The position numbers were made by a program, and so were the translations under genes. This document shows positions 30,671 through 56,877 of a DNA stretch of 56,877 nucleotides, piece after piece (the stretch's first letter is position 1; every line of letters begins with the position of its first letter). Below the pieces are notes generated by a model. The model saw only the letters and a program-made list of their open reading frames with translations, was not told the origin of the DNA and did not search any database. Source of the DNA: Prevotellaceae bacterium (GTDB lineage: Bacteria; Bacteroidota; Bacteroidia; Bacteroidales; UBA932); contig JAITQN010000037.1 of assembly GCA_031288865.1 (NCBI GenBank), forward strand, positions 1-56,877, written 5' to 3'.

Positions 30671-30745
30671 GCGTTGTATGGGCGCTCCGGTCGGCATGAC
30701 GGCGTTGTCGCCCGGTTGGTAATAGTGAATAATGAACAACAAAAA

Positions 30746-40380: not shown

Positions 40381-40541
40381 GCTCTTTTTTTGTTTTTAAT
40401 GATTTATCAATTAGAGTGCCTAAAGAAAGCGCCCAAAATTAATATATAATTTACTGGCAATCAATCTATTATTTTTTTTATAAGATCCTATGTCAAATGC
40501 AGAAAATATAGCGATTTTGAGCACTCTCATAATTTTGTTAT

Positions 40542-40753: not shown

Positions 40754-43225
40754 TTAGTTTTTAACTTTTAGTTTCAATTTGTCTTCCAACATTCTTATGT
40801 AAACCGCTCCGACAACCGGTCGTGCAAAAAACATCCGGTGGGTTGGTGTATCCGTGTTGTAAAAATCGGGCATCGGGTCACGGTGCATTGTTTCGTTCAT
40901 AAACCGGTAGATTGGAAGGATAAATTTTCTGAACGAAGCACTATCATTTGTCAAAGCTGCGGTAAACAGCGACCAGTCTGTTTTTGCATATTGTTCCCGC
41001 CCATCCAGCGGAAGCCCGTATTCATTTAGTTTCATCGCATAGTAGGCCTCTTCTGTTTCGGTAATATAGGGCGAAAATATATTCATATTCAATATTTTAT
41101 CCCAGATAAGATTGTATTTCTGGCTCCAGGTACTGTCAACCTGGTCGAATGCCATTTTGTAATGATCGCGTGCGTTTGCCGCCCGTTCCCACTCTTTTGC
41201 CATTTCCTTTGCCCGCCTAATATACGATTCTCCCAGTTCTTTCTGCTTCAGCATACTCGCCAAACGTCCGTAGGAGGCGATTCCCAAAATGGCTTTGATG
41301 GATAAATTGGTGTTTTGGGAATAGCTTGGCGCAAAATTATCACTCGTTATTTGATTTTCCGGATATACCCCGATTTCAAGCAAATAGCGTGTCCAGCGAG
41401 AAAGCGTTTCCCAATGCTTAGCCGCATAGCCGGCGTTTCCTTCTACGGTAGCGATAGCTGCAGCCATGATCAACATATTGCCGACTTCTTCTATCGGCAA
41501 ATCGGCGAAGAAACTCTGTCCGTTCGCCAAGGGATAATATCCTACATCGTGCGCCGGATATGGCTTCTGCCACTGTCCACTTTCGCTGTAGTAAAATACC
41601 GGATTCATCAGGGCTTTCATCAATTCGGTATTGTAATACAGGTACAGGGGCGAGGCAGGAAAAAATATATCCACTACACCCATCTCTATGCCAAACAACA
41701 TGCGCTCTCCTTCGGACGATGCCACTAATTTATACGAGGTTGCAGTTTGCCGGTAGGCTAAAGCACACAGTCCGGCATATTCTTTTCCGCCAAGTTCTGT
41801 GGCTTTCACCATGATTTCGTGATTCAGGCGGGCACACTTTTCTACTAACGAGACGTATTCCCTGTTTGCATCCCGGAATACCTGTTCGATATGCCGGTTC
41901 TCTTTCCGGTTCCAGTATGGGCGGAGATTTTCGCCAAAATACTGGATTGCAAATATATCATCGTATCCAGCCAGGATTTTTCCCGATGCTTTTTTCGATT
42001 TTCCCAGCGCTTGACTGATGGCTATCACGGAATTTTCCTCCGATTTGGCACATTCCTGCAGATGTCCCGTTTCCAGAAATGACTTTCGCATAACAACCGG
42101 ATAGCCGACGTCGCATGTGGCGTTTTCTTCTTCGGCGCTCAGGTAAAAATAACCCCATCCTTCAGCATCCCTGTCCAGCATTTTCTGTACAATACTCCCG
42201 GTTTTGGCAAAGAGCATTTTGTCTTTCCGGTAACATTCCGCTTGACTGGGACGGTTGCTTTTTGTACATGCCCATTCCGGGTGAGCTTCCAGATAGATTT
42301 CGACCTGATGTTCTTCTCCGTCTAAGGAGTTGGTTTTATAAGCAATATAATTAACTGGACGTCCCATTAAATCCACATTGTCTATTAGGAAAGGCGCTAT
42401 GAAACTAAGTTCCAGTTCTACATTTCCACATTCAAAAACATATTGTGTTTGGGTAGGTTGAAGATCTACCGATTTTTGAACGGCAGTTCTTTCTAGGCAA
42501 GAGCCCGCATGTTCCGCATAAATCCCAAAATCGACCAAACCACCGCCATAGAAGTTATGACAATGAGCAGCGATCGTTATTTTTCCGTCCAATGCCTTTT
42601 CAATGATTTCTTTAGGAATCTCCACTTCCACATTCTTGTACCATTCATAACCGGTTTTTACCAACACGATGCCGTTGACATACAACTCAAAAGTATCATC
42701 ATGAGAATACCTCAATATGAACCGCTTTCCTTTGGTGGAGGTGTCATTTAATCGAATTTCCCGGCGCACCCATATATCGGATGAAAGCCACAGGGTATGT
42801 ACATTTTGTTCTTCTCTTGTTCCGAAAGCGGCTTCGCCTTCCATCCAATGGCTGTCATCGAAGTCGGTTCTCTGCCAGCCTTCGGTGGGTTGCTCGAATG
42901 TGTATTTGCCATACCATTCATTTTCGTAAGAGATGGGAGCTAAGACTTCATGAGCTACTACATCCAGGCCCATAAAGCGATAGACTTCGCCATCGACGCG
43001 AATAGCGCCCACCATCGGCATTTCTCTTCCAAAAGAACTTTTAACCGTTTGCCGGTATAATGTATCTGTTCTTATCCAGGAACTGATCTTCGGGTCTATC
43101 GTTACAAGGGGATATGCCGGAGAGCGAAGTTCATTGCGAATGAACGGAATCTGCGATGTGTCTTTCTCACACGAAGTGACGATAAAACACACCAAAGGGA
43201 GCAATAAAAGAGTTATCTTTCTCAT
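40754..43225 (-). CDS. Glutaminase-A-like putative glycoside hydrolase (DUF4964/DUF5127/DUF4965/DUF1793 architecture), intermediate-GC copy
   Basis: ATG 43225 (MRKITLLLLPLVCFIVTSCEKD). LRSPAYPLVTIDPKISSW, VGAIRVDGEVYRFMG and YDDIFAIQYFGENLRPYW are collinear with 30746-33247. Confidence 0.8.
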   Translation of the reverse strand: MRKITLLLLPLVCFIVTSCEKDTSQIPFIRNELRSPAYPLVTIDPKISSWIRTDTLYRQTVKSSFGREMPMVGAIRVDGEVYRFMGLDVVAHEVLAPISYENEWYGKYTFEQPTEGWQRTDFDDSHWMEGEAAFGTREEQNVHTLWLSSDIWVRREIRLNDTSTKGKRFILRYSHDDTFELYVNGIVLVKTGYEWYKNVEVEIPKEIIEKALDGKITIAAHCHNFYGGGLVDFGIYAEHAGSCLERTAVQKSVDLQPTQTQYVFECGNVELELSFIAPFLIDNVDLMGRPVNYIAYKTNSLDGEEHQVEIYLEAHPEWACTKSNRPSQAECYRKDKMLFAKTGSIVQKMLDRDAEGWGYFYLSAEEENATCDVGYPVVMRKSFLETGHLQECAKSEENSVIAISQALGKSKKASGKILAGYDDIFAIQYFGENLRPYWNRKENRHIEQVFRDANREYVSLVEKCARLNHEIMVKATELGGKEYAGLCALAYRQTATSYKLVASSEGERMLFGIEMGVVDIFFPASPLYLYYNTELMKALMNPVFYYSESGQWQKPYPAHDVGYYPLANGQSFFADLPIEEVGNMLIMAAAIATVEGNAGYAAKHWETLSRWTRYLLEIGVYPENQITSDNFAPSYSQNTNLSIKAILGIASYGRLASMLKQKELGESYIRRAKEMAKEWERAANARDHYKMAFDQVDSTWSQKYNLIWDKILNMNIFSPYITETEEAYYAMKLNEYGLPLDGREQYAKTDWSLFTAALTNDSASFRKFILPIYRFMNETMHRDPMPDFYNTDTPTHRMFFARPVVGAVYIRMLEDKLKLKVKN

Positions 43226-43418
43226 AACAGTATCGTTTTTATTTCCATATTTGTTCACCTTTCTTGTAAAGAAAAATTCGTTCCTGTACGTTCCGGCTAT
43301 GATTTTTCAGATACAGCAATGTGTCGGCTGGAACATTTTGATAAAACAGCTTCTTTTCCATTGGCGTCGATGGTTAATCGGCTTTACATCCCTCCTTTTT
43401 TTGTGTTCGTGCAGGGCT

Positions 43419-43810: not shown

Positions 43811-44038
43811 CTTTCATTACCTTTGCCACCAAACCAAACAATATGAATTCTTTTCATATTATATTTATAAAATCTGTTTTCTATTTTCACACGCCCACTA
43901 TCTGGCTACTGGGCAAAAATAATTTCGATAGGTAAAGCCCTTGCTGCGCTCTTGCCGGCAGAGGCTTTGACCAAATAAATTTACCGCCTTGTTTATTCAA
44001 AAAGTTGTGCATAGTACTATAAATTCCGCAACGTTAAT
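43811..44038 (+). promoter_or_regulatory. Conserved non-coding leader, type 2, copy 1 (upstream of the transglutaminase-like gene)
   Basis: About 230 nt alignable by eye over most positions with 55868-56149 (e.g. ctatctggc..tgggcaaaaataatttcga.aggt.aaagc.cttgc.gc.ctcttgccggcag.agct.tgacc.aataaatttaccgcc). Confidence 0.6.
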
Positions 44039-45760
44039 ATGAAAAATATCCAAAATACTATCATTATGCTTGCTGCATGTGCCGTTTCCTGCACCAGTTT
44101 TTCTCCAGAAATAGAGACGGTACTGAAACAGGCGGGTAACAACCGTACCGAGCTTGAGAAGGTGCTGAAGCATTATGGCAAAACCCCTGCCGACAGCCTG
44201 AAACTGCGGGCAGCGGAATTTCTTATCACAAATATGCCGGGCAAACGCTCGGAATATTATGAGGCGCCGTGGAACGATGTGGCAACGGCGCTCCTTCGCT
44301 GGACAAGCTCGTCGGACAAGCAGATGGTGGCGAATACTTACCGTTTGGGTAAACCGGTAATCAAAGAAGACGTAAAGTATATCACCGCCGACTATCTGAT
44401 TAATAACATTGAATTGGCATTCAAAGTATGGCGGGAACAACCCTGGGGCAAATATATTCCTTTCGATGTTTTCTGTGAGGAGATACTGCCCTACCGGTTA
44501 GACATAGAGCCGCTGGAAAACTGGCGGGAAAAAGCGCTGGCAAGTTTCGCCGACCTGAACAGGTCGTTTAAGGACGATTCGACCATCACGGCGGTGGAGG
44601 CTTGCAGCAAGGTGAACGATTTGTTGCCGCGTTTCAGGTTAGACAAAGATTTTCCGGCGATGAACTATTCGCAGTTGATGGCGTCGACAAGAGGACCTTG
44701 CGATGCGATGGCCGCACTGGCTGTTTTCAGCATGAGGGCGCTGGGCATTCCCGTGACATTCGATTTTACGCAACTGTGGCCCAACCTGGGGCATGGACAT
44801 ACGTGGAACACTGTGCGCGACAGTACGGGAAGGCATCTGTCCTTTATGGGGGCTGAATCCAATCCGGGAGTTCCTCACTTGGGGTCAATCGCGCTCAAGA
44901 ACAAGGTGTACCGTAGAACCTTCGCCAAACGTCCCCTCTCGGTAAACGACAAATCCTTTTCGTTGGTTTTCCAAGACAATATCGTAGATGTTTCCGGAGA
45001 ACATGAAGGGTTTTACAAACTCAATATTCCGGTAAAATATCCGCCGGCCGGCCAGGCCGGTTATGCCTACCTGGCGGGCAAACACTTTTCACAGTGGATT
45101 ATCGTCGGATGGGGTGTTATCGACGGCGACACCATCCGGTATGCCCCTGTCGGGAGTCAAGTTCAGTACCTTCCCGTATGGTATGTGGCCGGCGGGCTTC
45201 AACCCGCCGGTGACGTGTTTGCGTTAGACAAGGACGGAAAAATTTTCTCCGTAAGCAACGAACATAAACCCTTTAAAGGACCGCACATCCTTTCAAAAGC
45301 CGCTCCCTGCATTATTCCGATGCGCGATTTCGACATGGGCGGGGAAGGCGTGGCTTTTCATGATATTGACAACTACAATTCTCAGATAGAAGGCGATGAG
45401 TACCGTAGAAGCCACGGCGATATGAACAGTTTTCCGGTGGATGTGGAAAAGGGGACAAATATTGCCTGGTCGGCGCCTGGAGAATGGCTGCTATATACGG
45501 TAGAAGTACGGGATGCCGGAGAATATCAGTTGTCCATCAGCGTATCTACACTGCTGGAGCCCACATTTCACCTGGAGGTGGATAGTCGGAATGTGTCAGG
45601 CCCTATATCCGTATCCCCTACCGGAGGATGGGCCAATTGGACGTGGTATCCCGACAAGCCCCTGCGCATACACCTGACTGCAGGAACTCATCAGATCAAG
45701 TATTACTTGGAATCCGGTGAGAACAATCTTCATGAAATGAAGCTGGAATATAGTAAATAG
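44039..45760 (+). CDS. Transglutaminase-like cysteine-protease-fold protein with C-terminal CBM6/35-like domain
   Basis: Core CDAMAALAVFSMRALGIPV ... GHGHTWNTVRD (Cys...His...Asp). C-terminal GEWLLYTVEVRDAGEYQLSISV ... TGGWANWTW ... LTAGTHQIKY is typical of CBM6-type modules. Confidence 0.75.
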   Translation: MKNIQNTIIMLAACAVSCTSFSPEIETVLKQAGNNRTELEKVLKHYGKTPADSLKLRAAEFLITNMPGKRSEYYEAPWNDVATALLRWTSSSDKQMVANTYRLGKPVIKEDVKYITADYLINNIELAFKVWREQPWGKYIPFDVFCEEILPYRLDIEPLENWREKALASFADLNRSFKDDSTITAVEACSKVNDLLPRFRLDKDFPAMNYSQLMASTRGPCDAMAALAVFSMRALGIPVTFDFTQLWPNLGHGHTWNTVRDSTGRHLSFMGAESNPGVPHLGSIALKNKVYRRTFAKRPLSVNDKSFSLVFQDNIVDVSGEHEGFYKLNIPVKYPPAGQAGYAYLAGKHFSQWIIVGWGVIDGDTIRYAPVGSQVQYLPVWYVAGGLQPAGDVFALDKDGKIFSVSNEHKPFKGPHILSKAAPCIIPMRDFDMGGEGVAFHDIDNYNSQIEGDEYRRSHGDMNSFPVDVEKGTNIAWSAPGEWLLYTVEVRDAGEYQLSISVSTLLEPTFHLEVDSRNVSGPISVSPTGGWANWTWYPDKPLRIHLTAGTHQIKYYLESGENNLHEMKLEYSK

Positions 45761-45807
45761 TGGTTAAGAATTATGAATGCTCAATATCTCTACACTAAAA
45801 ATATTCG

Positions 45808-46236
45808 TATCTTTGCTCGGCGTTATTTCCAAATAATGTCGAATTTAAAGTGCGATTCCTGTTTTGCAAAAATGCAAATAGATTTTGATATTTTATTGTG
45901 ATATGCGATAAGAAGATTGATGTTGTTTATATTGAATGCCATAGGAATTAACACAAGGTTGCTATGCATATCTGCATATCCGAGACAAGCAGAACTGCGA
46001 GACTTAAACCTCTGTGGTAGACAAAATCAAACTGCGATTTCGTAATACAGGAAAGCATGTACTATTTGGGAATTTGGGAAAAACAAATTCACCTGAGATA
46101 GCCTTTGCCATAGCTTTCCTTGTTGGCAAGGGTGATAACAGTTCGAAAGAGAGCCCTTAAAGGAAACGTAAAGGTTTGATGCGAAAAAGAGCCATTGATA
46201 AAAAACTGATTTTAGAAACAATAAAAACTAAAAACT
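45808..46236 (+). promoter_or_regulatory. Long conserved leader, type 1, copy A (putative -7 box TATCTTTG plus ~420-nt 5' UTR)
   Basis: Near-identical by eye to 48035-48474 apart from scattered substitutions and small indels. Conservation begins at about the TAnnTTTG-like box (45808-45815) and runs to the NVEALA start codon. Confidence 0.6.
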
Positions 46237-46584
46237 ATGAGAAAAAATGTTTTGGGCTTAATAGCCTTATTCGTAGTTGCAATTGTGGCTGCATGGAATG
46301 TGAGTTTAAACTCGCAAAATAATAAATTATCGGGGCTTTCCTTGGCCAATATAGAAGCCTTGGCGGAAGGGAATGAAGAGGAAAATAATAAGCCTACATG
46401 GCAAGTAGGAGAAAAAACAATTCAAACAACTACTTCTCCGGGATGGGAATGGGATGTTTCAGTGAACGGATGGTTCTTTAACGGGAAAAGGACTTCTAGT
46501 AAACCTCCAGAAATCACAACAGTGAAAATTAAATGTTGTAGAGCACAAGGAGACGTGACATCTTGTTCATACGAATCTTGCTAA
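46237..46584 (+). CDS. NVEALA-motif small secreted/anchored peptide 1 (115 aa; 4 Cys in the variable C-terminus)
   Basis: MRKNVLGLIALFVVAIVAAW (n+h region), NVSLNSQNNKLSGLSLANIEALAEG, then a unique tail ending ...KCCRAQGDVTSCSYESC. Confidence 0.8.
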   Translation: MRKNVLGLIALFVVAIVAAWNVSLNSQNNKLSGLSLANIEALAEGNEEENNKPTWQVGEKTIQTTTSPGWEWDVSVNGWFFNGKRTSSKPPEITTVKIKCCRAQGDVTSCSYESC

Positions 46585-46665
46585 AGAATTGGGGCCATTT
46601 CAATAAAATGTATTTGTTATTTTTTGTTTTGGCCTCTAATTATAATTTATTATTTTAAATTAATT

Positions 46666-47859
46666 ATGACAAAATATTGTTTAACTTATATTATTGTAAT
46701 CTTACTGTTTGTGTTGGCAAATTCCTGTGATAATAATAAAACAGGGAAAACATCAGCGGAATATGATATGATAAAAGTAGATATCAATCAAACAGGAATA
46801 TTAGACTACAATGATTATTTTGCTTCAGTAAATTTGACGCCGCTTGAAACAAATGAGGAATCATTAATCGCTCAAATTGATAAACTGTATATTACAGACA
46901 AATATATAATTATTTTCGATCAAAAAGCGATGAACATATTACTTTTTGAAATTAACGGCAGATTTCTTAATAAGATTGGTTCTAAGGGTAATGGTCCGGA
47001 CGAATATGCTTTTTTTAATGATATCCAGTTTAACAAAAAAGATTCCATGATATATGCTCATGAACGTTTTCGGAATTGTATATATACATACGATCTTTCA
47101 GGAAAGCTAATAAAGAAAAGTTCTCGGTCAAAAATTTCTTTCAATTCGTTTTACAAAACAGATGAAGGATATTGGGTTTACAGTTGCTTCGAAAGCGGTA
47201 ATCCGGAAAAACATAATTTGATGTTATTAGACGAAGATTTAGAGCGCGTCAAAAAAGCATTTTTCCCACAAGAGAGTTTTATAAATACAACATTTTCTTC
47301 TACATTCATTACAGATGAGAAAGAGAAAGTATTCTTTATTTACCCTTCAAGCAATATCATATATGAATTATTACGGGAAGATGCACTCCCATTTGCACAA
47401 ATTGACTTTGGGAACAAGACAATGCCATACAAGCAGATTACTCAACTGAAAAACATGGATGAATACGATAAACTGATCGCCGATAAGAAATATTTGGGCA
47501 ACATTTCTAATTACAAAATCAATCAAAATTATTTTTTCTTCTCTTTCAGTGAAACAGGATTTAATGTGACTGTACCTATGTATAACTGTTTCTATAATTT
47601 CTCCACAAAAGAGGTGAATATTTATAAAAATCCATTTATTGCATCCATGAATTATCCTGTATCCTCCTATTTATTATATGCTTCTGATGATGTGCTTATT
47701 TACCCTATCTACCCAATGATATTGTCAGATGATAGTTTTGACATTTTGAGCAAAACTTTATCTGCAGATATCCAATATGATTCAAATCCCATTTTAGCCA
47801 TGTCTAAATTAAAAAACAAGCGCGAACAAATAACTGAAATTCACGAGAAATGCCATTAA
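46666..47859 (+). CDS. Six-bladed-beta-propeller-type lipoprotein, paralog 1
   Basis: ATG 46666, lipobox FVLANSCDNN. Blocks LTPLETNEESLIAQIDKLYITDKYIIIFD, FEINGRFL and SKGNGPDEY. Confidence 0.8.
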   Translation: MTKYCLTYIIVILLFVLANSCDNNKTGKTSAEYDMIKVDINQTGILDYNDYFASVNLTPLETNEESLIAQIDKLYITDKYIIIFDQKAMNILLFEINGRFLNKIGSKGNGPDEYAFFNDIQFNKKDSMIYAHERFRNCIYTYDLSGKLIKKSSRSKISFNSFYKTDEGYWVYSCFESGNPEKHNLMLLDEDLERVKKAFFPQESFINTTFSSTFITDEKEKVFFIYPSSNIIYELLREDALPFAQIDFGNKTMPYKQITQLKNMDEYDKLIADKKYLGNISNYKINQNYFFFSFSETGFNVTVPMYNCFYNFSTKEVNIYKNPFIASMNYPVSSYLLYASDDVLIYPIYPMILSDDSFDILSKTLSADIQYDSNPILAMSKLKNKREQITEIHEKCH

Positions 47860-48034
47860 GAACCTTTGATTGAAAATGCACCGTAATCCGGCTCTGATCT
47901 GTACAGGCTGATAAAATGCCTTATTGTCAGATGATTATTGATAAAAAAAGCATCTCCGCATAATTTTACTATACAGTAGTGATAAATTTTCTCAAAGAAT
48001 TTCTATTTGTTTGAGTATGAATTAAAAATATTTG

Positions 48035-48474
48035 TATCTTTGCTCGGCGTTATTTCCAAATAATGTCGAATTTAAAGTGCGATTCCTGTTTTGCAAAAAT
48101 GCAAAAAAATGTAAATAGATTTTGATATTTTATTGTGATATGCGATGAGAAGGTTGATGTTGTTTATATTGAATGTTATAGAGGTTGACAGGGCACTGTT
48201 AAGCATATCTGCATATCCAGAAGAAACGGGGATGCGGAACTTAAACCTCTGTGGCAGACAAAATCAAACTGCGATTTCGCAATACAGGAAAGCATATACT
48301 ATTTGGGAATTGGGGGAAAACAAGTTCACCTGAGTTAGCCCTTGCCATAGCTTTCCTTGTTGACAAGGGTGATAACGGCTCGAAAGAGAACCTTTAAAGG
48401 AAACGTAAAGGTTTGACACGAAAAAAGAACCATTGATAAAAAACTGATTTTAGAAACAATAAGAACTAAATGCT
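48035..48474 (+). promoter_or_regulatory. Long conserved leader, type 1, copy B
   Basis: TTTG (48010-48013), N21, TATCTTTG (48035-48042), then ~430 nt collinear with copy A. Confidence 0.6.
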
Positions 48475-48732
48475 ATGAGAAAAAATGTTTTGGGCTTAAT
48501 AGCCTTGTTTGTAGTTGCAATTGTGGCTGCATGGAATGTGAGTTTAAACTCGCAAAATAATCAATTGTCCGGGATTTCTTTAGCCAATGTAGAAGCCTTG
48601 GCGGAAGAAAACAATGATCATAAGTATGAAAACAAAAGGATAAATGAAATAACTATTCATGATGATGCAACCGGAACATATAAGAAAATAGCAGTGATAG
48701 AATGTGAAGGTAGTGGAAATCTTGATTGTTAA
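48475..48732 (+). CDS. NVEALA-motif peptide 2 (85 aa; 2 Cys)
   Basis: The constant N-terminus differs from peptide 1 at two residues before the LANVEALA motif (K30Q, L34I) and by I39V within it. LSGISLANVEALAEE, then a unique tail ...VIECEGSGNLDC. Confidence 0.8.
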   Translation: MRKNVLGLIALFVVAIVAAWNVSLNSQNNQLSGISLANVEALAEENNDHKYENKRINEITIHDDATGTYKKIAVIECEGSGNLDC

Positions 48733-48938: not shown

Positions 48939-50111
48939 ATGAAAAATTTACTTTGTATTACAGCATGTTTTAGTTTATTGATTGTAATTATTTCATGCAA
49001 CAGGACACGGGAAAAACATATCCGGAACAATTACGAAACGGATAAAATCGTTGTTGATATTAATAGGGAAGACAAGTCATCCTTTGACGATTTTTTTGAA
49101 TATTCGCATCATATTGTATTACAAACAACTGACAATTCCTTGATTTCAAGAATAGATAAAATGCAAATCAGGAATGACAGACTGTACATATTAGACAGAA
49201 CGGGGGTCATACTTGTGTTTGATACAAACGGAAATTTTATAAAAAGGATTAATCATAAGGGACAATCCGGTATGGAATATATAAGCGCCCACGATTTTGA
49301 GATAGATACGGAAGATAATCTATATATCTGCGATTTTCTTGGAAGTAAAATTCTGAAATACGATAAAAATGACGAATTTATTACGGCAATTAAACTTCCT
49401 GTAAAAAGTCCTTCATTTAAATTAATGGGAAAAGATTGTTATGCATTTGACCTCCGTAATGGAGCGAATACTTCGGGGGAAAAAACTTTTTTTAATTATT
49501 TATATTATAAGAATGGATATATCACTTGTAAAGCATTGCCTTTCAATCCAAACCTGCAAGGTCATAGCTTTTCTTACGGTTATGGATTGTCTTCATTCTA
49601 TTTGTATAACAAAAAAACATTTTTGACAAGTACGATGAACGACACCGTTTATACTATTAATGAAAATGGATTCCCAATACCGTTTGCAATCTATGAATTT
49701 GGCCTTAAAAAACCGGAATTATCTTTTTCAAAAGAGGAAATTGAACAATATCTAAGGGAACAACAACGAGGAAATAAGATATCCGGCATCTATTGTTTTT
49801 ATTTGTTTAATGATTTTCTTTTCATTTGTTTTGATTACCGGGGGCAAACTAATTATGTAATATCAAAAATAAATGAATCTCCGTTATTTATCGGAAAATT
49901 TGGTTATGATAAAAATGGATTATGTATTATTCCAATTGCATACTTGTCTGATTTTCGGCAACCTCAGTTAGCAACAATTATTGATCCGGATTATTTGTCA
50001 AGTTTACTAAAAAAACGAAAAGCCACAGATAATTCTGATTTACTGTTGAGCATGCAAAAATCAGTTGTAGAAGAGGATAATCCTATTTTGGTTTTTTATA
50101 ACTGGAAATAA
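48939..50111 (+). CDS. Six-bladed-beta-propeller-type lipoprotein, paralog 2
   Basis: Lipobox LIVIISCNRT. Blocks LQTTDNSLISRIDKMQIRNDRLYILD, FDTNGNFI and HKGQSGMEY. Confidence 0.8.
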   Translation: MKNLLCITACFSLLIVIISCNRTREKHIRNNYETDKIVVDINREDKSSFDDFFEYSHHIVLQTTDNSLISRIDKMQIRNDRLYILDRTGVILVFDTNGNFIKRINHKGQSGMEYISAHDFEIDTEDNLYICDFLGSKILKYDKNDEFITAIKLPVKSPSFKLMGKDCYAFDLRNGANTSGEKTFFNYLYYKNGYITCKALPFNPNLQGHSFSYGYGLSSFYLYNKKTFLTSTMNDTVYTINENGFPIPFAIYEFGLKKPELSFSKEEIEQYLREQQRGNKISGIYCFYLFNDFLFICFDYRGQTNYVISKINESPLFIGKFGYDKNGLCIIPIAYLSDFRQPQLATIIDPDYLSSLLKKRKATDNSDLLLSMQKSVVEEDNPILVFYNWK

Positions 50112-50240: not shown

Positions 50241-51212
50241 ATGAAAATATTAGTATTAATCTGTTTATCAATAGCAGTATTTATCTCATCGTGTCAAAAA
50301 GGCGAAAATGTATCCGGTAACACAATTCCTATAGAGTTGCCGGCAGAGGCGATAAATAGTAAAGAAATAGCAGAGAGTGAAGATGAATATTTCGATTCAA
50401 TGAAATATATTCAATTAGAATCAAAAGAAGACATTACTTTAGGTAAAATTGATAAGATTTTAATTACGGAAAACCGGATATATATATTGGATATTTTCAA
50501 ATATGGCGGTGTGATTATTTATGACAGGGAAGGACAAATTGTAAATGCAATAGACAGAAGAGGGCAAGGACCGGAAGAATACAATTATATTTTCGGGATT
50601 TTCTATGACCAGCAGGATAGTACAATCAATCTTTTGTGCCGGTATCCGAATAAAATAATGAAATTCGATCAAGACGGCTATCTTCTTATCAAACAAATTG
50701 AACTTCCTGTTGCTTTAATTGATATTAAAAAATCAACTGATGGGTATTACATAGGCTATGCAGGTTCTTCTTCTATCAATAATTCATACTCTATTTATAT
50801 CTTTTCGGAAAAGTTTAAGCTTGTTGCTTCCGAATACCCCAACCACAAGGAATGGCAAATATACAGAATGGACAATACCTTGTCGTCCTATTCGGACAAT
50901 ATTTATTTTACTCCAATGTATGGATATACCGTCTATACAATAAAGGAGAAGAGTATCGCGCCGCTTTACGTGTATGATTTCGGTAAAAATAATAAAGTTT
51001 TGATGGTTGGCAATCCGGTATTGAATCCGAAAATCTGGAAATTATATAAACAGACTGTTTCCGGACAAACGCAAACAGCAATAAATACAGAAACAATATT
51101 TTTAACAAATGTTGTTGTTGAACAGCCGGAAGAAATAGGCGCTTTTCACAAAACGATTCGAGTGCATTGTAATGTGGAAAACAGGGATCACCGGAGTTTG
51201 TCTTTGCCATAG
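50241..51212 (+). CDS. Six-bladed-beta-propeller-type lipoprotein, paralog 3 (short; 3' end apparently replaced)
   Basis: Lipobox VFISSCQKGE. Blocks LESKEDITLGKIDKILITENRIYILD and RRGQGPEEY. Only 323 aa; the last codons run into the copy-C leader repeat (from ~51175). Confidence 0.65.
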   Translation: MKILVLICLSIAVFISSCQKGENVSGNTIPIELPAEAINSKEIAESEDEYFDSMKYIQLESKEDITLGKIDKILITENRIYILDIFKYGGVIIYDREGQIVNAIDRRGQGPEEYNYIFGIFYDQQDSTINLLCRYPNKIMKFDQDGYLLIKQIELPVALIDIKKSTDGYYIGYAGSSSINNSYSIYIFSEKFKLVASEYPNHKEWQIYRMDNTLSSYSDNIYFTPMYGYTVYTIKEKSIAPLYVYDFGKNNKVLMVGNPVLNPKIWKLYKQTVSGQTQTAINTETIFLTNVVVEQPEEIGAFHKTIRVHCNVENRDHRSLSLP

Positions 51213-51328
51213 CTTTCCTTGTTGACAAGGGTGATAACAGTTCGAAAGAGAGCCCTTAAAGGAAACGTAAAGGGTTGATGCGAAAAAGAGCCATTGATAA
51301 AAAACTGATTTTAGAAACAATAAAAACT
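51175..51328 (+). promoter_or_regulatory. Leader type 1, copy C (3' ~150 nt only)
   Basis: ...ctttgccatagctttccttgttgacaagggtgataacagttcgaaagagagcccttaaaggaaacgtaaag...aaaactgattttagaaacaataaaaact is collinear with the 3' parts of copies A and B. The upstream ~280 nt are missing. Confidence 0.6.
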
Positions 51329-51643
51329 ATGAGAAAAAATGTTTTGGGCTTAATAGCCTTATTCGTAGTTGCAATTGTGGCTGCATGGAATGTGAGTTTA
51401 AACTCGCAAAATAATCAATTGTTCGGGATTTCGTTAGCCAATGTGGAAGCCTTGGCGGAAGGGAATGAAGAGGATAATACCAAGAAATGCAGCAGAATTG
51501 TTCGTTCATGTACTTGTTCACATCCGGACAAAGGTTTTGTTGGTATGGCCATCCTTGAATGTGAAGAATATATATGGCGTGCTCCAATGGTACAGCAGAC
51601 ATGCAGAACTAGCAGTTGTCCTTACGGTGCAAATTGCTCATGA
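51329..51643 (+). CDS. NVEALA-motif peptide 3 (104 aa; 7 Cys)
   Basis: Start at ATG 51329 (MRKNVLGLIALFVV...). The first 87 nt are identical to peptide 1. LFGISLANVEALAEGNEED, then a unique Cys-rich tail ...CSRIVRSCTCSHPD...CRTSSCPYGANCS. Confidence 0.8.
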   Translation: MRKNVLGLIALFVVAIVAAWNVSLNSQNNQLFGISLANVEALAEGNEEDNTKKCSRIVRSCTCSHPDKGFVGMAILECEEYIWRAPMVQQTCRTSSCPYGANCS

Positions 51644-51649: not shown

Positions 51650-51696
51650 AACAGTGTAACAATTTGAAATTGATTATTTCAAATTGTTACACTGTT
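51650..51696 (+). promoter_or_regulatory. Perfect 21-bp-stem hairpin between peptide 3 and its propeller gene
   Basis: AACAGTGTAACAATTTGAAAT (51650-51670), loop tgatt, ATTTCAAATTGTTACACTGTT (51676-51696). No T-run follows. Confidence 0.7.
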
Positions 51697-51713
51697 CGAT
51701 AAATATATTATGT

Positions 51714-52808
51714 ATGAAAAATTTGAGTATAATCATATTAGGAACACTTGCCGCATCTTGTATTCAATGCGATAGCAGGAATATACATACTGATACTGTA
51801 CATATACCCTCAGCCGTCGATAAAATGATGGTAACGGATGATTTGTTCGATAATTTCGAGTTTATTCCATTAGAAACTTCCGAAGAAAGTTTATTTGGAT
51901 ATATAGACAAAATCATCATTCATAACGATAAATTCTATATACTTGACAAAACAAAAACAAGAAGAATTAATGTTTTTAATTCCAATGGTAAATTTAGTCA
52001 TACTATAGGGAAACGTGGTGATGGGCCGGAAGAATATACAAAAATAGAAGATTTTACAATCGACGAGAAAAACGGTCAGGTTATTATTCTTTCTTTTCCT
52101 TCAATTCTTTACAGATATGATTTGGAGGGGAATTTTATGGAAAGGAAAAAAATATCTGATTATTTGTTATGGCATATTTGTTATGATGGCGCTGAAGGTT
52201 TTTTATGTTCTACCGATTATCAATCGTCTGAAAGTGATTATTTGATCCATCATTATGATAAGGATTTTACTTTAAAAGATCGAAAAATAAAATCAACAAA
52301 CGGAATTGTAGCTATGCCGCCTCTTAATATTAATCCTTTTATAAAAGATGGGGATAAAATATCTTATTTTGATTTTTACACGTCAACATTACATTGGAAT
52401 ATTTTAAATGCGGAAGAAAAACAAATAGTGTTTGAGTTTGGAAATAAAAAAGTCCCATTTGAAGCCTATAAAGATCCCATGCGATTTTATGAGAAACAAC
52501 AGGATTATAATTTTTTTATAACAGCAGTTATCGACAAAGGATTGTTTTGGTCATCATACAGCAATCACGGTCAAGGCGCAAATATTTTAATAACAGACAT
52601 TACTAATGGCAAAAAAATATTATTGAAAGATTCCCGGTTCTTGGAGATATTATGTTGTCATGACAGTTATTTTTATCAAGCATACTCCCCATTAACGTTT
52701 TTGGAAGGAAATTTTAATTTTTCTGCCAAAGTAATATCAGATTACAGTGTTGAGTTTGACAGTAATCTTATGATCTTGAGATTTAAGGCCAGGCGAGTTT
52801 TTAATTAG
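51714..52808 (+). CDS. Six-bladed-beta-propeller-type lipoprotein, paralog 4
   Basis: ATG 51714, lipobox LAASCIQCDS. Blocks IPLETSEESLFGYIDKIIIHNDKFYILD, FNSNGKF and KRGDGPEEY. Confidence 0.8.
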   Translation: MKNLSIIILGTLAASCIQCDSRNIHTDTVHIPSAVDKMMVTDDLFDNFEFIPLETSEESLFGYIDKIIIHNDKFYILDKTKTRRINVFNSNGKFSHTIGKRGDGPEEYTKIEDFTIDEKNGQVIILSFPSILYRYDLEGNFMERKKISDYLLWHICYDGAEGFLCSTDYQSSESDYLIHHYDKDFTLKDRKIKSTNGIVAMPPLNINPFIKDGDKISYFDFYTSTLHWNILNAEEKQIVFEFGNKKVPFEAYKDPMRFYEKQQDYNFFITAVIDKGLFWSSYSNHGQGANILITDITNGKKILLKDSRFLEILCCHDSYFYQAYSPLTFLEGNFNFSAKVISDYSVEFDSNLMILRFKARRVFN

Positions 52809-52820: not shown

Positions 52821-53084
52821 ATGAGAAAACATTTCACTCTCCTTGTAATTATCGTAGCGATACTTACTGTATTGTTAGCATATTCGACTTTAGGTTTAGT
52901 AAAAATGAAGAAGAATTATATACAAACAGAAAATATAATTATAAAACAAGCAGATATGATTTATATTCTGACCGATTTTATAAAAGTTTCATGTAAACTT
53001 AATAAAACAAAACTTATTAACTGTCAGCTGTTTGATGAAAACAACTTGAGTATGTCAAAAACTCTTTTTTCATGTTCTCAATAG
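52821..53084 (+). CDS. Small single-TM protein (87 aa), possibly an N-terminal relic of a thioredoxin-fold paralog
   Basis: N-terminal TM (FTLLVIIVAILTVLLAY), then KMKKN..., with the same layout as 54303-54911 (TM, then RMKSKQ...). It ends ...KTLFSCSQ, where the longer protein has ...LVLCFSENSCDEC. The similarity is weak. Confidence 0.4.
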   Translation: MRKHFTLLVIIVAILTVLLAYSTLGLVKMKKNYIQTENIIIKQADMIYILTDFIKVSCKLNKTKLINCQLFDENNLSMSKTLFSCSQ

Positions 53085-53139: not shown

Positions 53140-54306
53140 ATGAAAAAGATTGAATTATTTTATTTCATAGCAGGCTTGATTGCACTTGCTTCTTGTTCAA
53201 GAGAAAAAGTGAACACGTTGGTAGAAATCCACATAGACCCTTCCCAGGTGGAATCGGCTTATGATATAGCCGGTGATATTGAATCCGAATGGGATATTAT
53301 CGCATTAGAAACAACCGACAATTATTTGATAAGCGCTATCAACAAGCTATATTATCAAAATGGAATTTATTACTTATTAGACAAGAACGGGCATACCGTT
53401 TTTTTATACGATTCGTCGGGGAAAGCTATTTCAAAGCTTTACAAAAAAGGCGAAGGTCCGGATGAATATTCTATGATTGAAGCGCTTGCCATCGTAGATA
53501 AAAACATCTGGGTTTCTGATTCTAACCTGCGATCTTTAATCTGTTACGACGAAAACCTGAAAATGACAGATCGCTACAAAACGTTTGATATAATGAGCGT
53601 TTACGATATGGTAACTATTGACGGAAATATTTGTGTTGCAGCCAACTGGTCAGGATGGAATGACCAAAATATTGAATGTGGAATCTACAACACGGCTAAC
53701 CGGGAAATAACCGGATTTTTACATGTACCCAAACAAAAAGAGGAAATCGCCACTTTCAAAAAAACAAATCAGTTAGCCGGGAGTGAAAATTCATGCCTCT
53801 TTATCCATTCGTATTGCGACACGATTTTCCAGCTAAGTAATAATGAATTTTCTCCTGCTTATAAGGCAGTCTTCAAAGAAAGGTACGAAGACATTCCGCT
53901 ACCAATAGAGAAAATAATGGAACCTTCCCTTGCTCACATAATCAGAGGGATGGAAAATATTAAACAAACCTCCCAAAATATCTTTATTAGTTATCTTGAT
54001 ACAAGGAAATTCATGACCGCTATGTATAATAAAAGCAAAGGAGTCTGCCGGGTTTACCACTATTTGATAAATTCCAACATCGGCGCCTTGCCAATATTCC
54101 TGTATAATGCATTTTTTGACGAAAATAACATAATATCCGTACACGAAGCGAGTGAGGTTTTGGATTTTTTTGGTAATGAGTCTAATCTGGCAAAAATAAA
54201 AAATGAATCGGATAGAAAAAAAATAGAAACCATCATGTCTTCCATTGACCCTTATTCCAATCCGGTACTAATCCGGTATAAGTTAAAACCAAATTCGTCT
54301 TTATGA
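53140..54306 (+). CDS. Six-bladed-beta-propeller-type lipoprotein, paralog 5
   Basis: Lipobox LIALASCSRE. Blocks IALETTDNYLISAINKLYYQNGIYYLLD, YDSSGKAI and KKGEGPDEY. Preceded by the last ~30 nt of leader type 1 (aaaactgattttagaaacgataaatact). Confidence 0.8.
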   Translation: MKKIELFYFIAGLIALASCSREKVNTLVEIHIDPSQVESAYDIAGDIESEWDIIALETTDNYLISAINKLYYQNGIYYLLDKNGHTVFLYDSSGKAISKLYKKGEGPDEYSMIEALAIVDKNIWVSDSNLRSLICYDENLKMTDRYKTFDIMSVYDMVTIDGNICVAANWSGWNDQNIECGIYNTANREITGFLHVPKQKEEIATFKKTNQLAGSENSCLFIHSYCDTIFQLSNNEFSPAYKAVFKERYEDIPLPIEKIMEPSLAHIIRGMENIKQTSQNIFISYLDTRKFMTAMYNKSKGVCRVYHYLINSNIGALPIFLYNAFFDENNIISVHEASEVLDFFGNESNLAKIKNESDRKKIETIMSSIDPYSNPVLIRYKLKPNSSL

Positions 54307-54911
54307 AGTATTATTTATATTTATTACTTGCTCTATTATTGATTACATTAATAATTTTTGTGAATCTGTTATATTATAAAGAAAGAATGAAATCAAAACA
54401 GTATTTAGTTTTGTACGAGCAACTTGCAAACGAAAAAGTAGATTTGTCAGTAAAGAATACTTACAGAAGCATTGAAGTTTATTTGAATGGGAAAAACTTT
54501 CAGAGAGAAGTTGAAATATCGGATGGTAGAGGTAATCGTTTAGAATTAAGCCAGCTAATTGATAAGGACAAACTCGTTTTGTGTTTTTCCGAAAATAGTT
54601 GTGATGAATGTGTGGAGGCGGAATTAGATAAATTAAATAAAAAAAATCAATTGGCCGGTTCAGAAAATGTCATTATACTGATAAACGCCTCCGATAAGAG
54701 GTATGTGCATCAATATCAAACGAATCATCAAAAATATCCTGTTTACGAAATGAAAACGAACCAAGCACAATTATCTTCAATCATTGCACCATTCTTTTTC
54801 ATTTTAGAGAAAGAGACCATGCGGGTTAATGCAGCGTTTGTTCCTCTGAAACATCAACCGGAAGAGACTGATAAGTATCTAAATAAAGTAATTAATGATT
54901 ATTTTGAATAA
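54303..54911 (+). CDS. Membrane-anchored thioredoxin-fold protein with a CxxC motif (TlpA/redoxin-like)
   Basis: ATGA overlap with the preceding gene. N-terminal TM (YLYLLLALLLITLIIFVNLL). GNRLELSQLIDKDKLVLCFSENSCDECVEAELDKL fits the redoxin pattern (partner strand, then C-x-x-C at a helix start). Confidence 0.6.
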   Translation: MKYYLYLLLALLLITLIIFVNLLYYKERMKSKQYLVLYEQLANEKVDLSVKNTYRSIEVYLNGKNFQREVEISDGRGNRLELSQLIDKDKLVLCFSENSCDECVEAELDKLNKKNQLAGSENVIILINASDKRYVHQYQTNHQKYPVYEMKTNQAQLSSIIAPFFFILEKETMRVNAAFVPLKHQPEETDKYLNKVINDYFE

Positions 54912-54928
54912 ATATCATCCCATATTGT

Positions 54929-55825
54929 ATGGATTCAATTAAAAACCTTCGCCCAAAATGGACATGGAAATCGCTCCTGAAAACCGTTTTTTTCTGGTTT
55001 AAGATAGTGATATTAGGGCTATTATTAGCTCTGGTATTGCGGCTCTTTGTCTTTTCCTCATTTAAGGTGCCGACTTCCTCCATGGAGCCGGCTATCCTGG
55101 CGGGCGATTATATTTTGGTCAATAAACTGGCATACGGGGCAAGGCTTCCGAAGAATTTCAACTTCATGAAAGGAGGGGAATTTGAAACCTTCCGGGTCAA
55201 AGGCTTTTCAAAAATTAAACGTAACGATGTTGTTGTTTTTAATTTTCCCTATCCCGACTGGTATGGCATCGGATGGGATTTGAGCCTCTATTACGTGAAA
55301 CGTTGCGTGGCTCTTCCCGGCGATACGTTTTACATCGACAAAGGTATTTATAAAGTAAAAAACTGTTCGGATGTTTTGGGAAATTATGAAGCACAGCGCC
55401 GTTTCTCGAAAGTGAGAACAGAGGAAATTCCTCCGGAGATATTTCATTGTTTTCCGAACAATGAGGATTATCACTGGACGGTTAAGCTATTCGGCCCGTT
55501 GTATGTCCCCCGCAAAGGCGACACGCTCGCCATTGACCCAAAAAACATCGCGCTTTACCGGAATTTAATCCGTTATGAAACAAATAAGGAAATATATTTG
55601 AAAAATGATACGGTTTATTTGGACAATGAATTTTTGCAATCGTATATTTTTCAACAAAATTATTATTTCATGGCCGGCGATTGGGTGTCGGACTCCAAAG
55701 ATTCGCGCTACTGGGGCTTGCTGCCCGAAGACCATATTGTAGGCAAAGCGGCTATCATTTGGAAATCGAAAAAAATCGAAACCGACCGATACCGATGGAA
55801 ACGGTTTTTCAAAAAAATCAAATAA
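54929..55825 (+). CDS. lepB: Signal peptidase I (S26 family) paralog
   Basis: TM anchor, then SSMEPAILAGDYILVNKLAYG (Ser nucleophile box), YVKRCVALPGDTF (Lys general-base box) and GDWVSDSKDSRYWGLLPEDHIVGKA (box E). Confidence 0.85.
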   Translation: MDSIKNLRPKWTWKSLLKTVFFWFKIVILGLLLALVLRLFVFSSFKVPTSSMEPAILAGDYILVNKLAYGARLPKNFNFMKGGEFETFRVKGFSKIKRNDVVVFNFPYPDWYGIGWDLSLYYVKRCVALPGDTFYIDKGIYKVKNCSDVLGNYEAQRRFSKVRTEEIPPEIFHCFPNNEDYHWTVKLFGPLYVPRKGDTLAIDPKNIALYRNLIRYETNKEIYLKNDTVYLDNEFLQSYIFQQNYYFMAGDWVSDSKDSRYWGLLPEDHIVGKAAIIWKSKKIETDRYRWKRFFKKIK

Positions 55826-55867: not shown

Positions 55868-56149
55868 CTTTTACTATCTTTACCGCAAAACCAAACAGTA
55901 TGATTCTTAGTCATATCATATTTATGAAACTTATTTTCTGTTTTCGCGCTTTTCGCACGCCCTCTATCTGGCAGTTGGGCAAAAATAATTTCGACAGGTC
56001 AAAGCTCTTGCCGCACTCTTGCCGGCAGGAGCTATGACCGAATAAATTTACCGCCTTTCGAGACTTGATTTTATTCAAAGAGTTGTGCAAGGAATATAAT
56101 GGCACGTAAAACCCCATATTTAATTTATAACAAATAATATTAATAAATT
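55868..56149 (+). promoter_or_regulatory. Conserved non-coding leader, type 2, copy 2 (upstream of NVEALA peptide 4)
   Basis: Collinear with 43811-44038. Unrelated to leader type 1. Confidence 0.6.
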
Positions 56150-56434
56150 ATGAAAAAAATAATATTAGGCGGTGTGGCTGCTGTTGTAATCGCTGTTTTG
56201 GCGGCTGTAAACGTGAATATGAATTCACAAAGTGAAAATTTGTTGTCTGACCTTGTGCTGGCGAATGTGGAAGCGCTGGCACAGGAAGCAAATCCCCCCG
56301 CCACTAAATATGTTGCGCTTCATATGACTTGTTATAAATTTGTTTATGGTGGTGATGTGGTTGATACAGGAAAAACGTACGTATCTTGTTCATCCGGTGG
56401 ATTCGCCGATTGTCAGCCAACAAGCTGTAACTAA
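56150..56434 (+). CDS. NVEALA-motif peptide 4 (94 aa; 4 Cys), divergent leader subtype
   Basis: MKKIILGGVAAVVIAVLAAV NVNMNSQSENLLSDLVLANVEALAQEA, then a tail ...MTCYKFVYGG...YVSCSSGGFADCQPTSCN. Confidence 0.8.
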   Translation: MKKIILGGVAAVVIAVLAAVNVNMNSQSENLLSDLVLANVEALAQEANPPATKYVALHMTCYKFVYGGDVVDTGKTYVSCSSGGFADCQPTSCN

Positions 56435-56457
56435 AGTTAAGAGTTCCTTTTACTCAG

Positions 56458-56487
56458 AAAGGGAACTTGTAGTACTAAGTTCCCTTT
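56458..56487 (+). terminator. Hairpin (11-bp perfect stem) after peptide 4, with an upstream competing segment
   Basis: AAAGGGAACTT (56458-56468), loop gtagtact, AAGTTCCCTTT (56477-56487), then cggTTATTTT. The segment AGTTCCTTTT at 56442-56451 could pair alternatively with 56458-56468. Confidence 0.45.
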
Positions 56488-56518
56488 CGGTTATTTTAAT
56501 TAAAACACAAGTATTGAT

Positions 56519-56877
56519 ATGAAATATGTATTTATTTTTTTCTTATTTATAACATTGTCATGTTGTAGTAATAATAGTACGAAATCGTATGAGAATGTAC
56601 TGGAAATAGATTGCAAAAATCTTGAAGAAATTAAATTGTCTGATTATGTAAAAAATATAAAAGTGGTAAAACTTGCGACTTCCGATGATGTATTGATAGG
56701 AGAGATTGTAAAAGTAGAGATATTCAATAACAGGATATATGTTCTTGACAGGCAATCAAACGCCCTGTTTGTTTTTACGGACGAGGGGGAGATTTTTTAT
56801 AAATTAAGAAAAATAGGACAGGGACCCGGAGAGTATATTCATCTTTTCGATTTTGAAGTAACAAATGATGGCGTGTA
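56519..56877 (+). CDS. Six-bladed-beta-propeller-type lipoprotein, paralog 6 (3'-truncated by the window edge)
   Basis: Not in the ORF track because no stop is reached. ATG 56519 gives MKYVFIFFLFITLSCCSNN..., with blocks LATSDDVLIGEIVKVEIFNNRIYVLD, FTDEGEIF and KIGQGPGEY. Confidence 0.75.
   Translation, partial: MKYVFIFFLFITLSCCSNNSTKSYENVLEIDCKNLEEIKLSDYVKNIKVVKLATSDDVLIGEIVKVEIFNNRIYVLDRQSNALFVFTDEGEIFYKLRKIGQGPGEYIHLFDFEVTNDGV

Follow-up and report, generated by a model that had tools for sequence, protein, structure and literature searches.

Which enzyme releases the variable cores of the NVEALA peptides, and at which bond does it cut? The question is raised by a contig of a Prevotellaceae bacterium (NCBI GenBank assembly GCA_031288865.1, contig JAITQN010000037.1, positions 1 to 56,877), the whole of which, 56.9 kb in length, is called the window here. 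In its right-hand part, at about 44-56.9 kb, lies an array of about 13 kb on the + strand with a GC content of 32-36%. It holds genes for short precursors with the NVEALA leader (Pfam: PF14055), for DUF5128 propeller lipoproteins, for a thioredoxin-fold protein, hereafter the redoxin, and for a signal peptidase I of the S26 family (Table 1). A reading of the sequence alone had proposed that this S26 peptidase releases the Cys-containing cores after the ALA that ends the leader and that the redoxin handles their disulfides. Cleavage after ALA by the array S26 is also the best-supported model of the present analysis, because of the linkage of S26 genes to NVEALA loci, the conservation of ALA, the leader length and the leader/core boundary, and we rate the chance that this model is correct as about even.

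NVEALA and DUF5128 are catalogued in Pfam, and the NCBI name of the former is 'NVEALA domain-containing'. Full-text literature searches found no functional description of the NVEALA cluster, motif or peptidase. NVEALA arrays occur in Bacteroides, Phocaeicola, Parabacteroides, Prevotella and Tannerella, and some loci have several precursors, each with a different Cys-rich core. The novelty lies in a dedicated signal peptidase with an apparently unusual site geometry, inside an undescribed and widespread peptide system.

The ALA site at the end of the leader

In all four window precursors the hydrophobic core extends to residue 19-20 and ALA to residue 43-44, which is 23-24 residues past the core and in line with the earlier estimate of about 23 residues. 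From the initial Met to ALA, 80 of 115 sequences measure exactly 43 residues, and 109 fall within 42-44 residues.

The residues flanking the site were estimated from 68 unique NVEALA genes, with the anchor gene of each locus excluded; the scan pattern forced E, Q or N at +1 and thereby biased the logo, and dropping all pattern-matching genes produces the opposite bias. In these genes, which lie outside the locus selection, Ala is found at -1 in 66 of 68 (Ser in the other two) and at -3 in 65 of 68, so the Ala residues expected at these two positions were indeed recovered. Gln is the commonest residue at +1 (18/68), followed by Asn (14/68), and +3 is Glu in 59 of the 68 genes. In Bacteroidetes more than half of the signal peptidase I substrates start with Gln (PMC5837995), and the Gln-rich +1 position at ALA fits this preference.

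ALA also marks a change in conservation. On average, sequence pairs are 47% identical over the leader and 18.5% over the core, and the fourth window precursor has 18 database relatives whose leaders are 76-91% identical through NVEALA and are followed by unrelated cores. Divergent precursors which the profile missed mostly keep small residues at -1 and -3 despite the loss of the N or E of the motif, as in ENINAIA|Y and NVEALS|Q, which retain A-I-A and A-L-S. Judged by these patterns, ALA is the better-conserved site of the signal peptidase type and coincides with a sharp leader/core boundary.

The other candidate is an ordinary site, V-A-A|W, at the end of the hydrophobic core. It had been pointed out in the sequence-only reading and is present in the window precursors, though it is looser than ALA. 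The AxA at ALA falls outside the canonical spacing of 3-9 residues past the core, whereas the looser proximal site has the canonical distance. S26 could thus remove an ordinary signal peptide at this proximal site (V/I-A-G/A | F/W/Y-N-V) only, with NVEALA as a pro-region or sorting helix which is recognised by the propeller, a Wzy_C/TPR protein or an RND adaptor; if this segment is then cut off at all, a different enzyme would do so, for instance the transglutaminase-like lipoprotein of the array. A plausible small-residue site at the end of the core is indeed present in most sequences, the NVEALA motif is conserved on both of its faces, a hint at a binding partner that is not a signal peptidase, and a transglutaminase-like protein is encoded in 32 of 80 NVEALA loci, with the Cys/His motif visible in the window copy. 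The proximal site is, however, far less constrained than ALA: among 58 sequences its -1 position is G in 34, A in 12, V in 5, S in 3, T in 2 and I in 2, so that V, I or T stands there in 9 of 58, and its -3 position includes F, M and Y. Its +1 position is F, Y or W in 44 of 58, about three quarters, and Gln in none, contrary to the Gln rule of Bacteroidetes (PMC5837995). Furthermore, an ordinary signal peptide would not need a dedicated and duplicated peptidase gene, and the conservation boundary lies at ALA rather than at the proximal site. We consider cleavage at the proximal site only to be doubtful.

The array signal peptidase and its linkage to NVEALA loci

The sequence-only reading had named a LepB paralog with Ser and Lys boxes in the array, and two profile models and the alignment to LepB agree on this identity. 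The protein matches PF10502 (E 2e-34, 119.3 bits with a cutoff of 22.9) and TIGR02227 (sigpep_I_bact, 114.7 bits with a cutoff of 47), whereas it stays far below the cutoff of the archaeal-type model TIGR02228 (16.9 bits, with 51.85 required). Aligned to E. coli LepB (PDB: 1t7d), SSMEPA corresponds to the Ser90 box, YYVKRC to the Lys145 box and GDWVSDSKDSRYWG to box E, and a single hydrophobic helix (about residues 20-42) lies upstream of the Ser box. By these sequence matches the protein is a bona fide signal peptidase I with its catalytic residues intact.

The same residues were followed through the array-linked S26 proteins of other genomes. Ser90, Lys145, Ser278, Asp280 and Arg282 (E. coli numbering) are invariant in 34 of 34 unique full-length proteins, and the S1/S3 pocket positions 84, 86, 91, 95, 101, 132 and 144 remain hydrophobic in all 34. 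The LepB sequence used for numbering is one residue short of 324; its six catalytic positions are as expected and it agrees with the PDB alignment over both aligned stretches. Because catalytic and pocket residues are kept, the array-linked S26 proteins are predicted to be active and to prefer small residues (Ala-x-Ala).

Linkage of S26 to NVEALA was assessed in both directions. All seven S26 homologues, with 81, 65, 61, 60, 53, 51 and 39% identity, adjoin NVEALA and DUF5128/TolB-like propeller genes. For the reverse test, one genome per GTDB species was scanned with the NVEALA leader alone, using a narrower alignment, which gave 80 loci from 59 genomes. These come from Parabacteroides, Bacteroides, Phocaeicola, Tannerella, Prevotella, Paludibacter, Dysgonamonadaceae and termite-gut metagenome-assembled genomes (MAGs) and include one sphingobacterium, Parapedobacter koreensis. 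To assign gene families in 87 loci, we called open reading frames (ORFs) ourselves and used single-pass phmmer seeds. Of the 80 loci, 34 carry S26 genes or fragments, and of the 32 that span 15 kb or more, 16 do so. These counts are not independent events, since the 80 loci include several from the same genomes or from related species. In total, 40 S26 genes or fragments, 28 of them full-length, were detected in 1.05 Mb, and 40 of 40 lie on the strand of the NVEALA genes. This corresponds to an enrichment of about 40-60 fold near NVEALA when compared with an assumed, unmeasured background of 2-4 S26 genes per genome of 4-6 Mb, or about one per Mb. Two or more loci were retrieved from 15 genomes, and 11 of these carry S26 in one of their loci, which fits one processing locus with satellite arrays.

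Since this linkage is seen from either side and spans families and orders, S26 is a component of the NVEALA system and not a bystander. The earlier expectation of S26 and redoxin genes beside NVEALA loci in other genomes thus held for S26, and only sporadically for the redoxin, which was found in 5 of the 80 loci.

That the S26 gene is instead a general housekeeping lepB which merely happens to lie beside the array is hardly credible. The protein does have every sequence feature of a signal peptidase I, there is no second S26 gene in the 56.9-kb window, and annotations of model strains name the homologue lepB (PMC10434189, PMC11402942). Against this stands the synteny with NVEALA, propeller, Wzy_C and RND genes, which persists over the whole range of identity from 81% to 39% and extends to Sphingobacteriales. 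Single loci can carry two S26 copies (L003, L016 and L054), and in one MAG, with the accession prefix BNXY01, three separate NVEALA loci contain an S26 gene or fragment. Moreover, Phocaeicola arrays contain decayed S26-like ORFs of 155-161 amino acids (L052:1564-2031, L053:9397-9864, L056:7906-8373 and L067:4818-5303), in which the Ser box (IPSDSMYPAL) is kept and the Lys box and box E are lost; such decay would be lethal for a sole housekeeping gene. A full-length S26 is also present in two of these four loci.

The S26 protein might also act on something other than the leader. It could process other cluster proteins, such as DUF1573 Ig-like proteins or substrates of the Wzy_C/RND module, or it could be a TraF-like transpeptidase which cyclises or ligates the peptides. 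In this direction points the commonest neighbour of S26, which is a Wzy_C/TPR gene, following it in 21 of 36 cases, and not a precursor gene. There is also a weak NCBIfam similarity to TraF and to the NiSOD maturation protease, and Cys is found among the last three residues in 42% of cores as against 23% expected from composition (153 unique NVEALA ORFs from the window and the loci). The matches to TraF and SodX, however, score far under the respective cutoffs and stem from the homology common to S26 proteins. Those DUF1573 proteins that were examined carry ordinary A|Q signal peptides which any LepB could cleave, and both the window and its closest relative, L001, have S26 inside the array, without Wzy_C in the sequence covered (12.7 kb for L001). 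We regard such another role as unlikely.

In transcriptome data for B. thetaiotaomicron, BT0662 (O-antigen ligase family), BT0664 (6-bladed propeller), BT0667 (lepB) and BT0669 (RND adaptor) are listed without comment, and so are BF9343_2901 and BF9343_2903 for B. fragilis (PMC10434189, PMC11402942). By annotation names alone, BT0662-0669 and BF9343_2901/2903 appear to be the same cluster.

Proposed pathway, partner genes and flanking DNA

From the observed gene organisation and sequence features we infer the following biochemical steps. Sec would insert each NVEALA precursor by its N-terminal hydrophobic core of 15 residues. The precursor would then stay tethered to the inner membrane, and a fixed spacer of 23 residues, ending in the amphipathic LSxLxLANVEALA, would place the peptide core in the periplasm. 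There the core may fold, aided in some lineages by the membrane-anchored CxxC thioredoxin-fold protein, and it may engage the cognate propeller lipoprotein encoded directly downstream. The cluster S26 would take A(-3)-L-A(-1) into its small-residue S3 and S1 pockets and cut after ALA, so that the released peptide would start with Q/N/S/E-x-E. In most genomes an adjacent Wzy_C/TPR protein and an RND/MFP/OEP pump may act on the product or export it.

Extended to the whole family, this gives a tentative picture of NVEALA loci as a two-step peptide secretion pathway across Bacteroidales. It would combine a bipartite leader, made of a signal anchor and a fixed-length NVEALA helix, with a dedicated signal peptidase I cutting 23 residues from the anchor, a paired propeller serving as chaperone or immunity protein, and export over the outer membrane by Wzy_C/TPR, RND and OEP proteins. 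If S26 does cut after NVEALA, the leader would represent a new type for peptides secreted by Gram-negative bacteria, the signal peptidase I would be able to use a site far from the membrane anchor, a geometry without precedent, and a simple rule would predict the mature termini of a large family of gut-microbiota peptides which may have antagonistic or signalling roles. If the two-step pathway holds as well, these peptides would form a new class of microcin-like or signalling peptides in human-gut and termite-gut Bacteroidales. Genetically tractable strains offer a direct test of the hypothesis.

The redoxin was predicted to be a membrane-anchored thioredoxin-fold protein with a CDEC motif, and the evidence supports this. 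Its Pfam matches are below threshold, with 19.6 bits for AhpC-TSA (E 9e-4) and 17.2 bits for Redoxin (E 5e-3) against gathering cutoffs of 26 and 26.6, and two close homologues carry precomputed matches to PF00578 or PF08534. A profile of the family finds ResA (E 0.003) with the CxxC motifs aligned. With an AlphaFold2 (AF2) model (pLDDT 80.4), built on an alignment of database homologues, Foldseek finds ResA, TlpA, SdbA, Etrx1 and a Bacteroides vulgatus oxidoreductase at E 2e-5 to 2e-4 and a TM score of up to 0.66 of the target. CxxC is invariant in 10 of 10 family members and P163, at the cis-Pro position, nearly so; the inner dipeptide varies (DE, DA, SE, NS, EA, SS, SP, TP). Family members carry an N-terminal signal anchor or a lipobox, and therefore an extracytoplasmic location is likely; in the window protein a hydrophobic helix precedes CDEC. 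The ATG of the redoxin gene and the stop codon of the propeller gene before it overlap (ctttATGAag, 54303-54306), and S26 starts 17 nt past the redoxin stop; the translational coupling proposed for these genes is thereby confirmed. The gene call in the protein collection (P0121, 174 amino acids) begins at Met29 and drops the transmembrane helix; the longer protein of 202 amino acids is favoured because homologues have 200-201 amino acids and because of the ATGA overlap with the upstream gene. Where the redoxin is present it mostly adjoins S26 upstream, and it is the preceding family match for 6 of 36 full-length S26 genes.

Several observations weigh against cleavage after ALA by the array S26 and against the disulfide role of the redoxin. 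The invariance of A-3 and A-1 is roughly equalled by that of L-8, N-6, E-4 and L-2, which implies that something recognises the other face of the NVEALA segment and that signal peptidase I specificity alone is insufficient to explain the motif. The active site of LepB sits at the membrane surface and its known cuts lie 3-9 residues past the hydrophobic core; a site 23 residues from the core therefore needs a special geometry. AxA is lost in the precursor-like ORF of 87 amino acids just upstream of the propeller-redoxin-S26 unit. Roughly one in two retrieved NVEALA loci lacks S26 within 10 kb and would have to be served in trans. The transglutaminase-like Cys/His lipoprotein is about as frequent as S26 (32 and 34 of the 80 loci), and it could be an alternative candidate for the leader protease; homologues are also present in L002, L004 and L006. 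As for the redoxin, the charges flanking its transmembrane helix are ambiguous for an outside-facing domain, and with 10 occurrences over all loci it is present in about 6-12% of loci. It is a sporadic, lineage-specific accessory and not a core partner. The fold and the anchor claimed for it stand, and a putative role in the disulfide chemistry of the cores is reasonable, but it cannot be essential to the system.

The cores have 15-112 residues (median about 35) with 8-9% Cys and are also rich in Gly, Ser, Thr, Asn and Tyr. In the 153 unique ORFs the first ten residues after ALA contain 15% E, 15% G and 10% N. The idea of obligate disulfides, which an even number of Cys residues would have indicated, found no support, with 96 even and 62 odd counts.

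The usual gene order in these loci is NVEALA, propeller, optionally a DUF1573 Ig-like, a transglutaminase-like and a thioredoxin-fold protein, then S26, a Wzy_C/TPR membrane protein, an RND adaptor, an RND pump and an outer-membrane factor. Of 148 precursor genes, 111 have a propeller lipoprotein gene directly after them, at a median distance of 74 nt. The conserved partners are thus the cognate propeller after nearly every precursor, and the Wzy_C/TPR protein and RND/MFP/OEP pump after S26. In the window every array precursor, including the decayed one, has a DUF5128 propeller lipoprotein gene downstream; Wzy_C and RND genes are absent from the 56.9 kb, and the S26 and redoxin genes sit inside the array. 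Neither Peptidase_C39 nor an ABC transporter was found among the Pfam-annotated genes of seven loci.

Stem-loops with z < -2 are present in 51% of the spacers between precursor and propeller in L007-L086 (median z -2.1), compared with 13% after propeller genes. Hairpins after NVEALA stop codons are typical of attenuators which raise the ratio of precursor to partner transcript.

The features of the array are collected in Table 1, in which the transglutaminase-like gene is the first gene of the array.

Table 1. Features of the NVEALA array and of the satellite pair to its left, with positions in the window
Feature	Position	Strand	Evidence
Satellite pair: remnant NVEALA ORF (40542-40742), then DUF5128 propeller (39163-40380)	39163-40742	-	
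Transglutaminase-like (Cys/His core) lipoprotein with C-terminal CBM6	44039-45760	+	CBM_6 E 9e-11, Transglut_core E 1e-3
NVEALA precursor 1, LANIEALA|EGNEE, 4-Cys core	46237-46584	+	PF14055 E 6e-10
DUF5128 propeller lipoprotein 1, lipobox LANSC	46624-47859	+	phmmer family assignment
NVEALA precursor 2, LANVEALA|EENND, 2-Cys core	48475-48732	+	PF14055 E 7e-8
DUF5128 propeller lipoprotein 2, lipobox VIISC	48939-50111	+	phmmer family assignment
DUF5128 propeller, C-terminally truncated, fused to DUF1573-like piece	50241-51212	+	PF17170 E 3e-41, profile positions 14-230 only
NVEALA precursor 3, LANVEALA|EGNEE, 8-Cys core	51329-51643	+	PF14055 E 6e-10
Perfect 20-bp stem-loop directly 3' of precursor 3 stop	51650-51696	.	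z = -7.3
DUF5128 propeller lipoprotein 4	51684-52808	+	PF17170 E 1e-37
Decayed NVEALA-like precursor, 87 amino acids, motif TENIIIK, 3-Cys tail	52821-53084	+	N-terminal hydrophobic helix; position before propeller gene
DUF5128 6-bladed beta-propeller lipoprotein 5, lipobox LIALASC	53140-54306	+	PF17170 E 8e-26
Membrane-anchored thioredoxin-fold CDEC protein, 202 amino acids	54303-54911	+	profile, AF2/Foldseek
Signal peptidase I (S26, Ser/Lys type), 298 amino acids, one N-terminal transmembrane helix	54929-55825	+	PF10502, TIGR02227
NVEALA precursor 4, LANVEALA|QEANPP, 4-Cys core	56150-56434	+	PF14055 E 7e-10
Terminator-like 13-bp stem-loop after precursor 4	56457-56488	+	z = -5.3
5' part of further propeller lipoprotein gene, runs off window end	56519-56877	+	propeller family

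The four NVEALA ORFs of the window score 32.5-39.1 bits against the PF14055 gathering cutoff of 27; the decayed ORF had no Pfam match. Propeller 5 is related to PDB 4raa and to NHL repeats, and the AF2 model of the propeller (pLDDT 52) was too poor for a fold search. The C-terminal 70 residues of the truncated propeller ORF match DUF1573 Ig-like seeds, and this ORF is probably a recombination product or a pseudogene. Rfam gave no match on the window at gathering thresholds, and PADLOC found no defence-model match for six cluster proteins.

Repeats connect several of these genes. The stretch of about 440 nt before precursors 1 and 2 is repeated with 86-94% identity, together with the leader-coding part, and about 140 nt before precursor 3 are likewise repeated with the leader-coding part (45796-46369, 48023-48607 and 51188-51461). 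Such repeats of upstream region and leader suggest a recent cassette duplication including the promoter or 5' region. A distinct 135-nt repeat (43857-43990 and 55923-56057), with a AGCTCTTGCCG..CGGCAGGAGCT hairpin, precedes the transglutaminase-like gene and precursor 4.

In related loci a conserved element of about 125 nt is found on the + strand 90-200 nt upstream of NVEALA starts, for example at L048:6812-6938, L030:1598-1724, L009:9768-9894, L004:6458-6584 and L084:9761-9887; it had no regular-expression match in the window. It consists of an A-run, a hairpin of 12-16 bp, then CTCCCTTC, an A-rich loop and GAAAGGAGGT, and then GCAAAGGTA. The hairpin shows many compensatory changes (GGGCGGA..TCCGCCC, GGGGAGA..TCTCCCC and AGTGGAGATATG..CATATCCCACT), and GAAAGGAGGT is a perfect extended Shine-Dalgarno sequence which is paired with an anti-Shine-Dalgarno-like arm. 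In 35 of 36 regular-expression matches the orientation is that of the NVEALA gene. Read on the minus strand, the element resembles a small RNA gene, with a Bacteroides -7 box (TAnnTTTG), a CCUCCUUUC 5' region and a terminator hairpin with T-run. It belongs to no Rfam family, and the precursor upstream regions gave matches at chance level only. RNAalifold predicted no pairs on a MAFFT alignment of the element; folds of single sequences show the hairpin with z = -2 to -6 in 10 of 11 sequences. A Shine-Dalgarno sequence of the NVEALA genes themselves was rejected: there was no such sequence within 30 nt of 122 start codons, and the GGAGG belongs to this separate element 90-200 nt upstream. A mini-ORF of three codons (MQK/MQR) after GGAGG was also rejected, being present in a minority of element copies only.

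To the left of the array, the remnant NVEALA ORF of the satellite pair (MPGLSLANVEALAYEF...) lacks the N-terminal hydrophobic part and abuts the stop codon of a glutaminase-A-like gene. Genes of this type (DUF4964/DUF5127/GtaA six-hairpin), for instance 40754-43258 (-) and 30665-33247 (+) in the window, L001:1-1665 and L037:14489-16369, recur beside arrays in several genomes, and clustering grouped five ORFs from five loci. A pectin-type polysaccharide utilisation locus spans 5814-37723 (+) and includes GH3, three GH28, SusC/SusD, SusE-like and glutaminase-A-like six-hairpin genes. Its GC content is 51-60%, mostly 54-60%, with a strongly positive AT skew, and that of its flanks is 31-37%. This compositional jump suggests horizontal acquisition or a chimeric assembly.

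Comparison with known systems

The array S26 belongs to the same family and fold as E. coli LepB (MEROPS S26A, Ser/Lys), with which it shares the catalytic and S1/S3 residues and a predicted N-terminal membrane anchor. Unlike LepB, it is encoded in a peptide cluster, where it can be duplicated, it has a single transmembrane helix and a different middle domain, and its proposed site lies 23-24 residues past the hydrophobic core instead of 3-9.

SipW of the B. subtilis tapA-sipW-tasA operon is an ER/archaeal-type S26B enzyme with a Ser/His centre. Like the array S26, it is an extra signal peptidase encoded in the operon of its presumed substrates. The array S26 is of the bacterial type, with an invariant Lys145, and because of this Ser/Lys centre it falls outside the SipW subfamily, although it would play a comparable role. 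In addition, the NVEALA substrates are families of hypervariable Cys-rich peptides of 30-110 residues with an extended leader, and the propeller, the Wzy_C/TPR protein and the RND pump have no counterpart in tapA-sipW-tasA.

Imp1/Imp2 and the thylakoid processing peptidase are S26 enzymes which cut a second, distal site of bipartite presequences. They are a precedent for the two-step or distal S26 cleavage proposed here for NVEALA. In contrast to the NVEALA loci, these systems are organellar, and the initial cleavage falls to a separate protease in a compartment of its own. There is no sign of common descent with the array S26 beyond membership in the S26 family.

The redoxin has the fold of ResA, TlpA and DsbE, with CxxC at the active-site position of ResA, an anchor or lipobox and a Pro at the cis-Pro position. 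It differs from them in its low identity (12-20%), in Pfam scores under the gathering cutoff, in the variable dipeptide of CxxC and in its context, which is a peptide cluster and not cytochrome c maturation.

Bacteriocins and microcins with double-glycine leaders, including Bacteroidetocins, share with the NVEALA loci a conserved leader with a sharp boundary, hypervariable Cys-containing cores and multi-copy precursors. A hairpin after the precursor gene, a thiol-disulfide oxidoreductase in some clusters and a dedicated tripartite exporter are likewise common to both. The NVEALA leader, however, has no GG/GA/GS motif, ends in ALA and contains a Sec-type hydrophobic core; S26 takes the place of the C39 protease, RND/MFP/OEP proteins take that of the ABC exporter, and a Wzy_C/TPR protein is added. 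In their leader, hypervariable core, multi-copy precursors, hairpin, variable partner, protease and pump, the NVEALA loci resemble bacteriocin or microcin loci in organisation.

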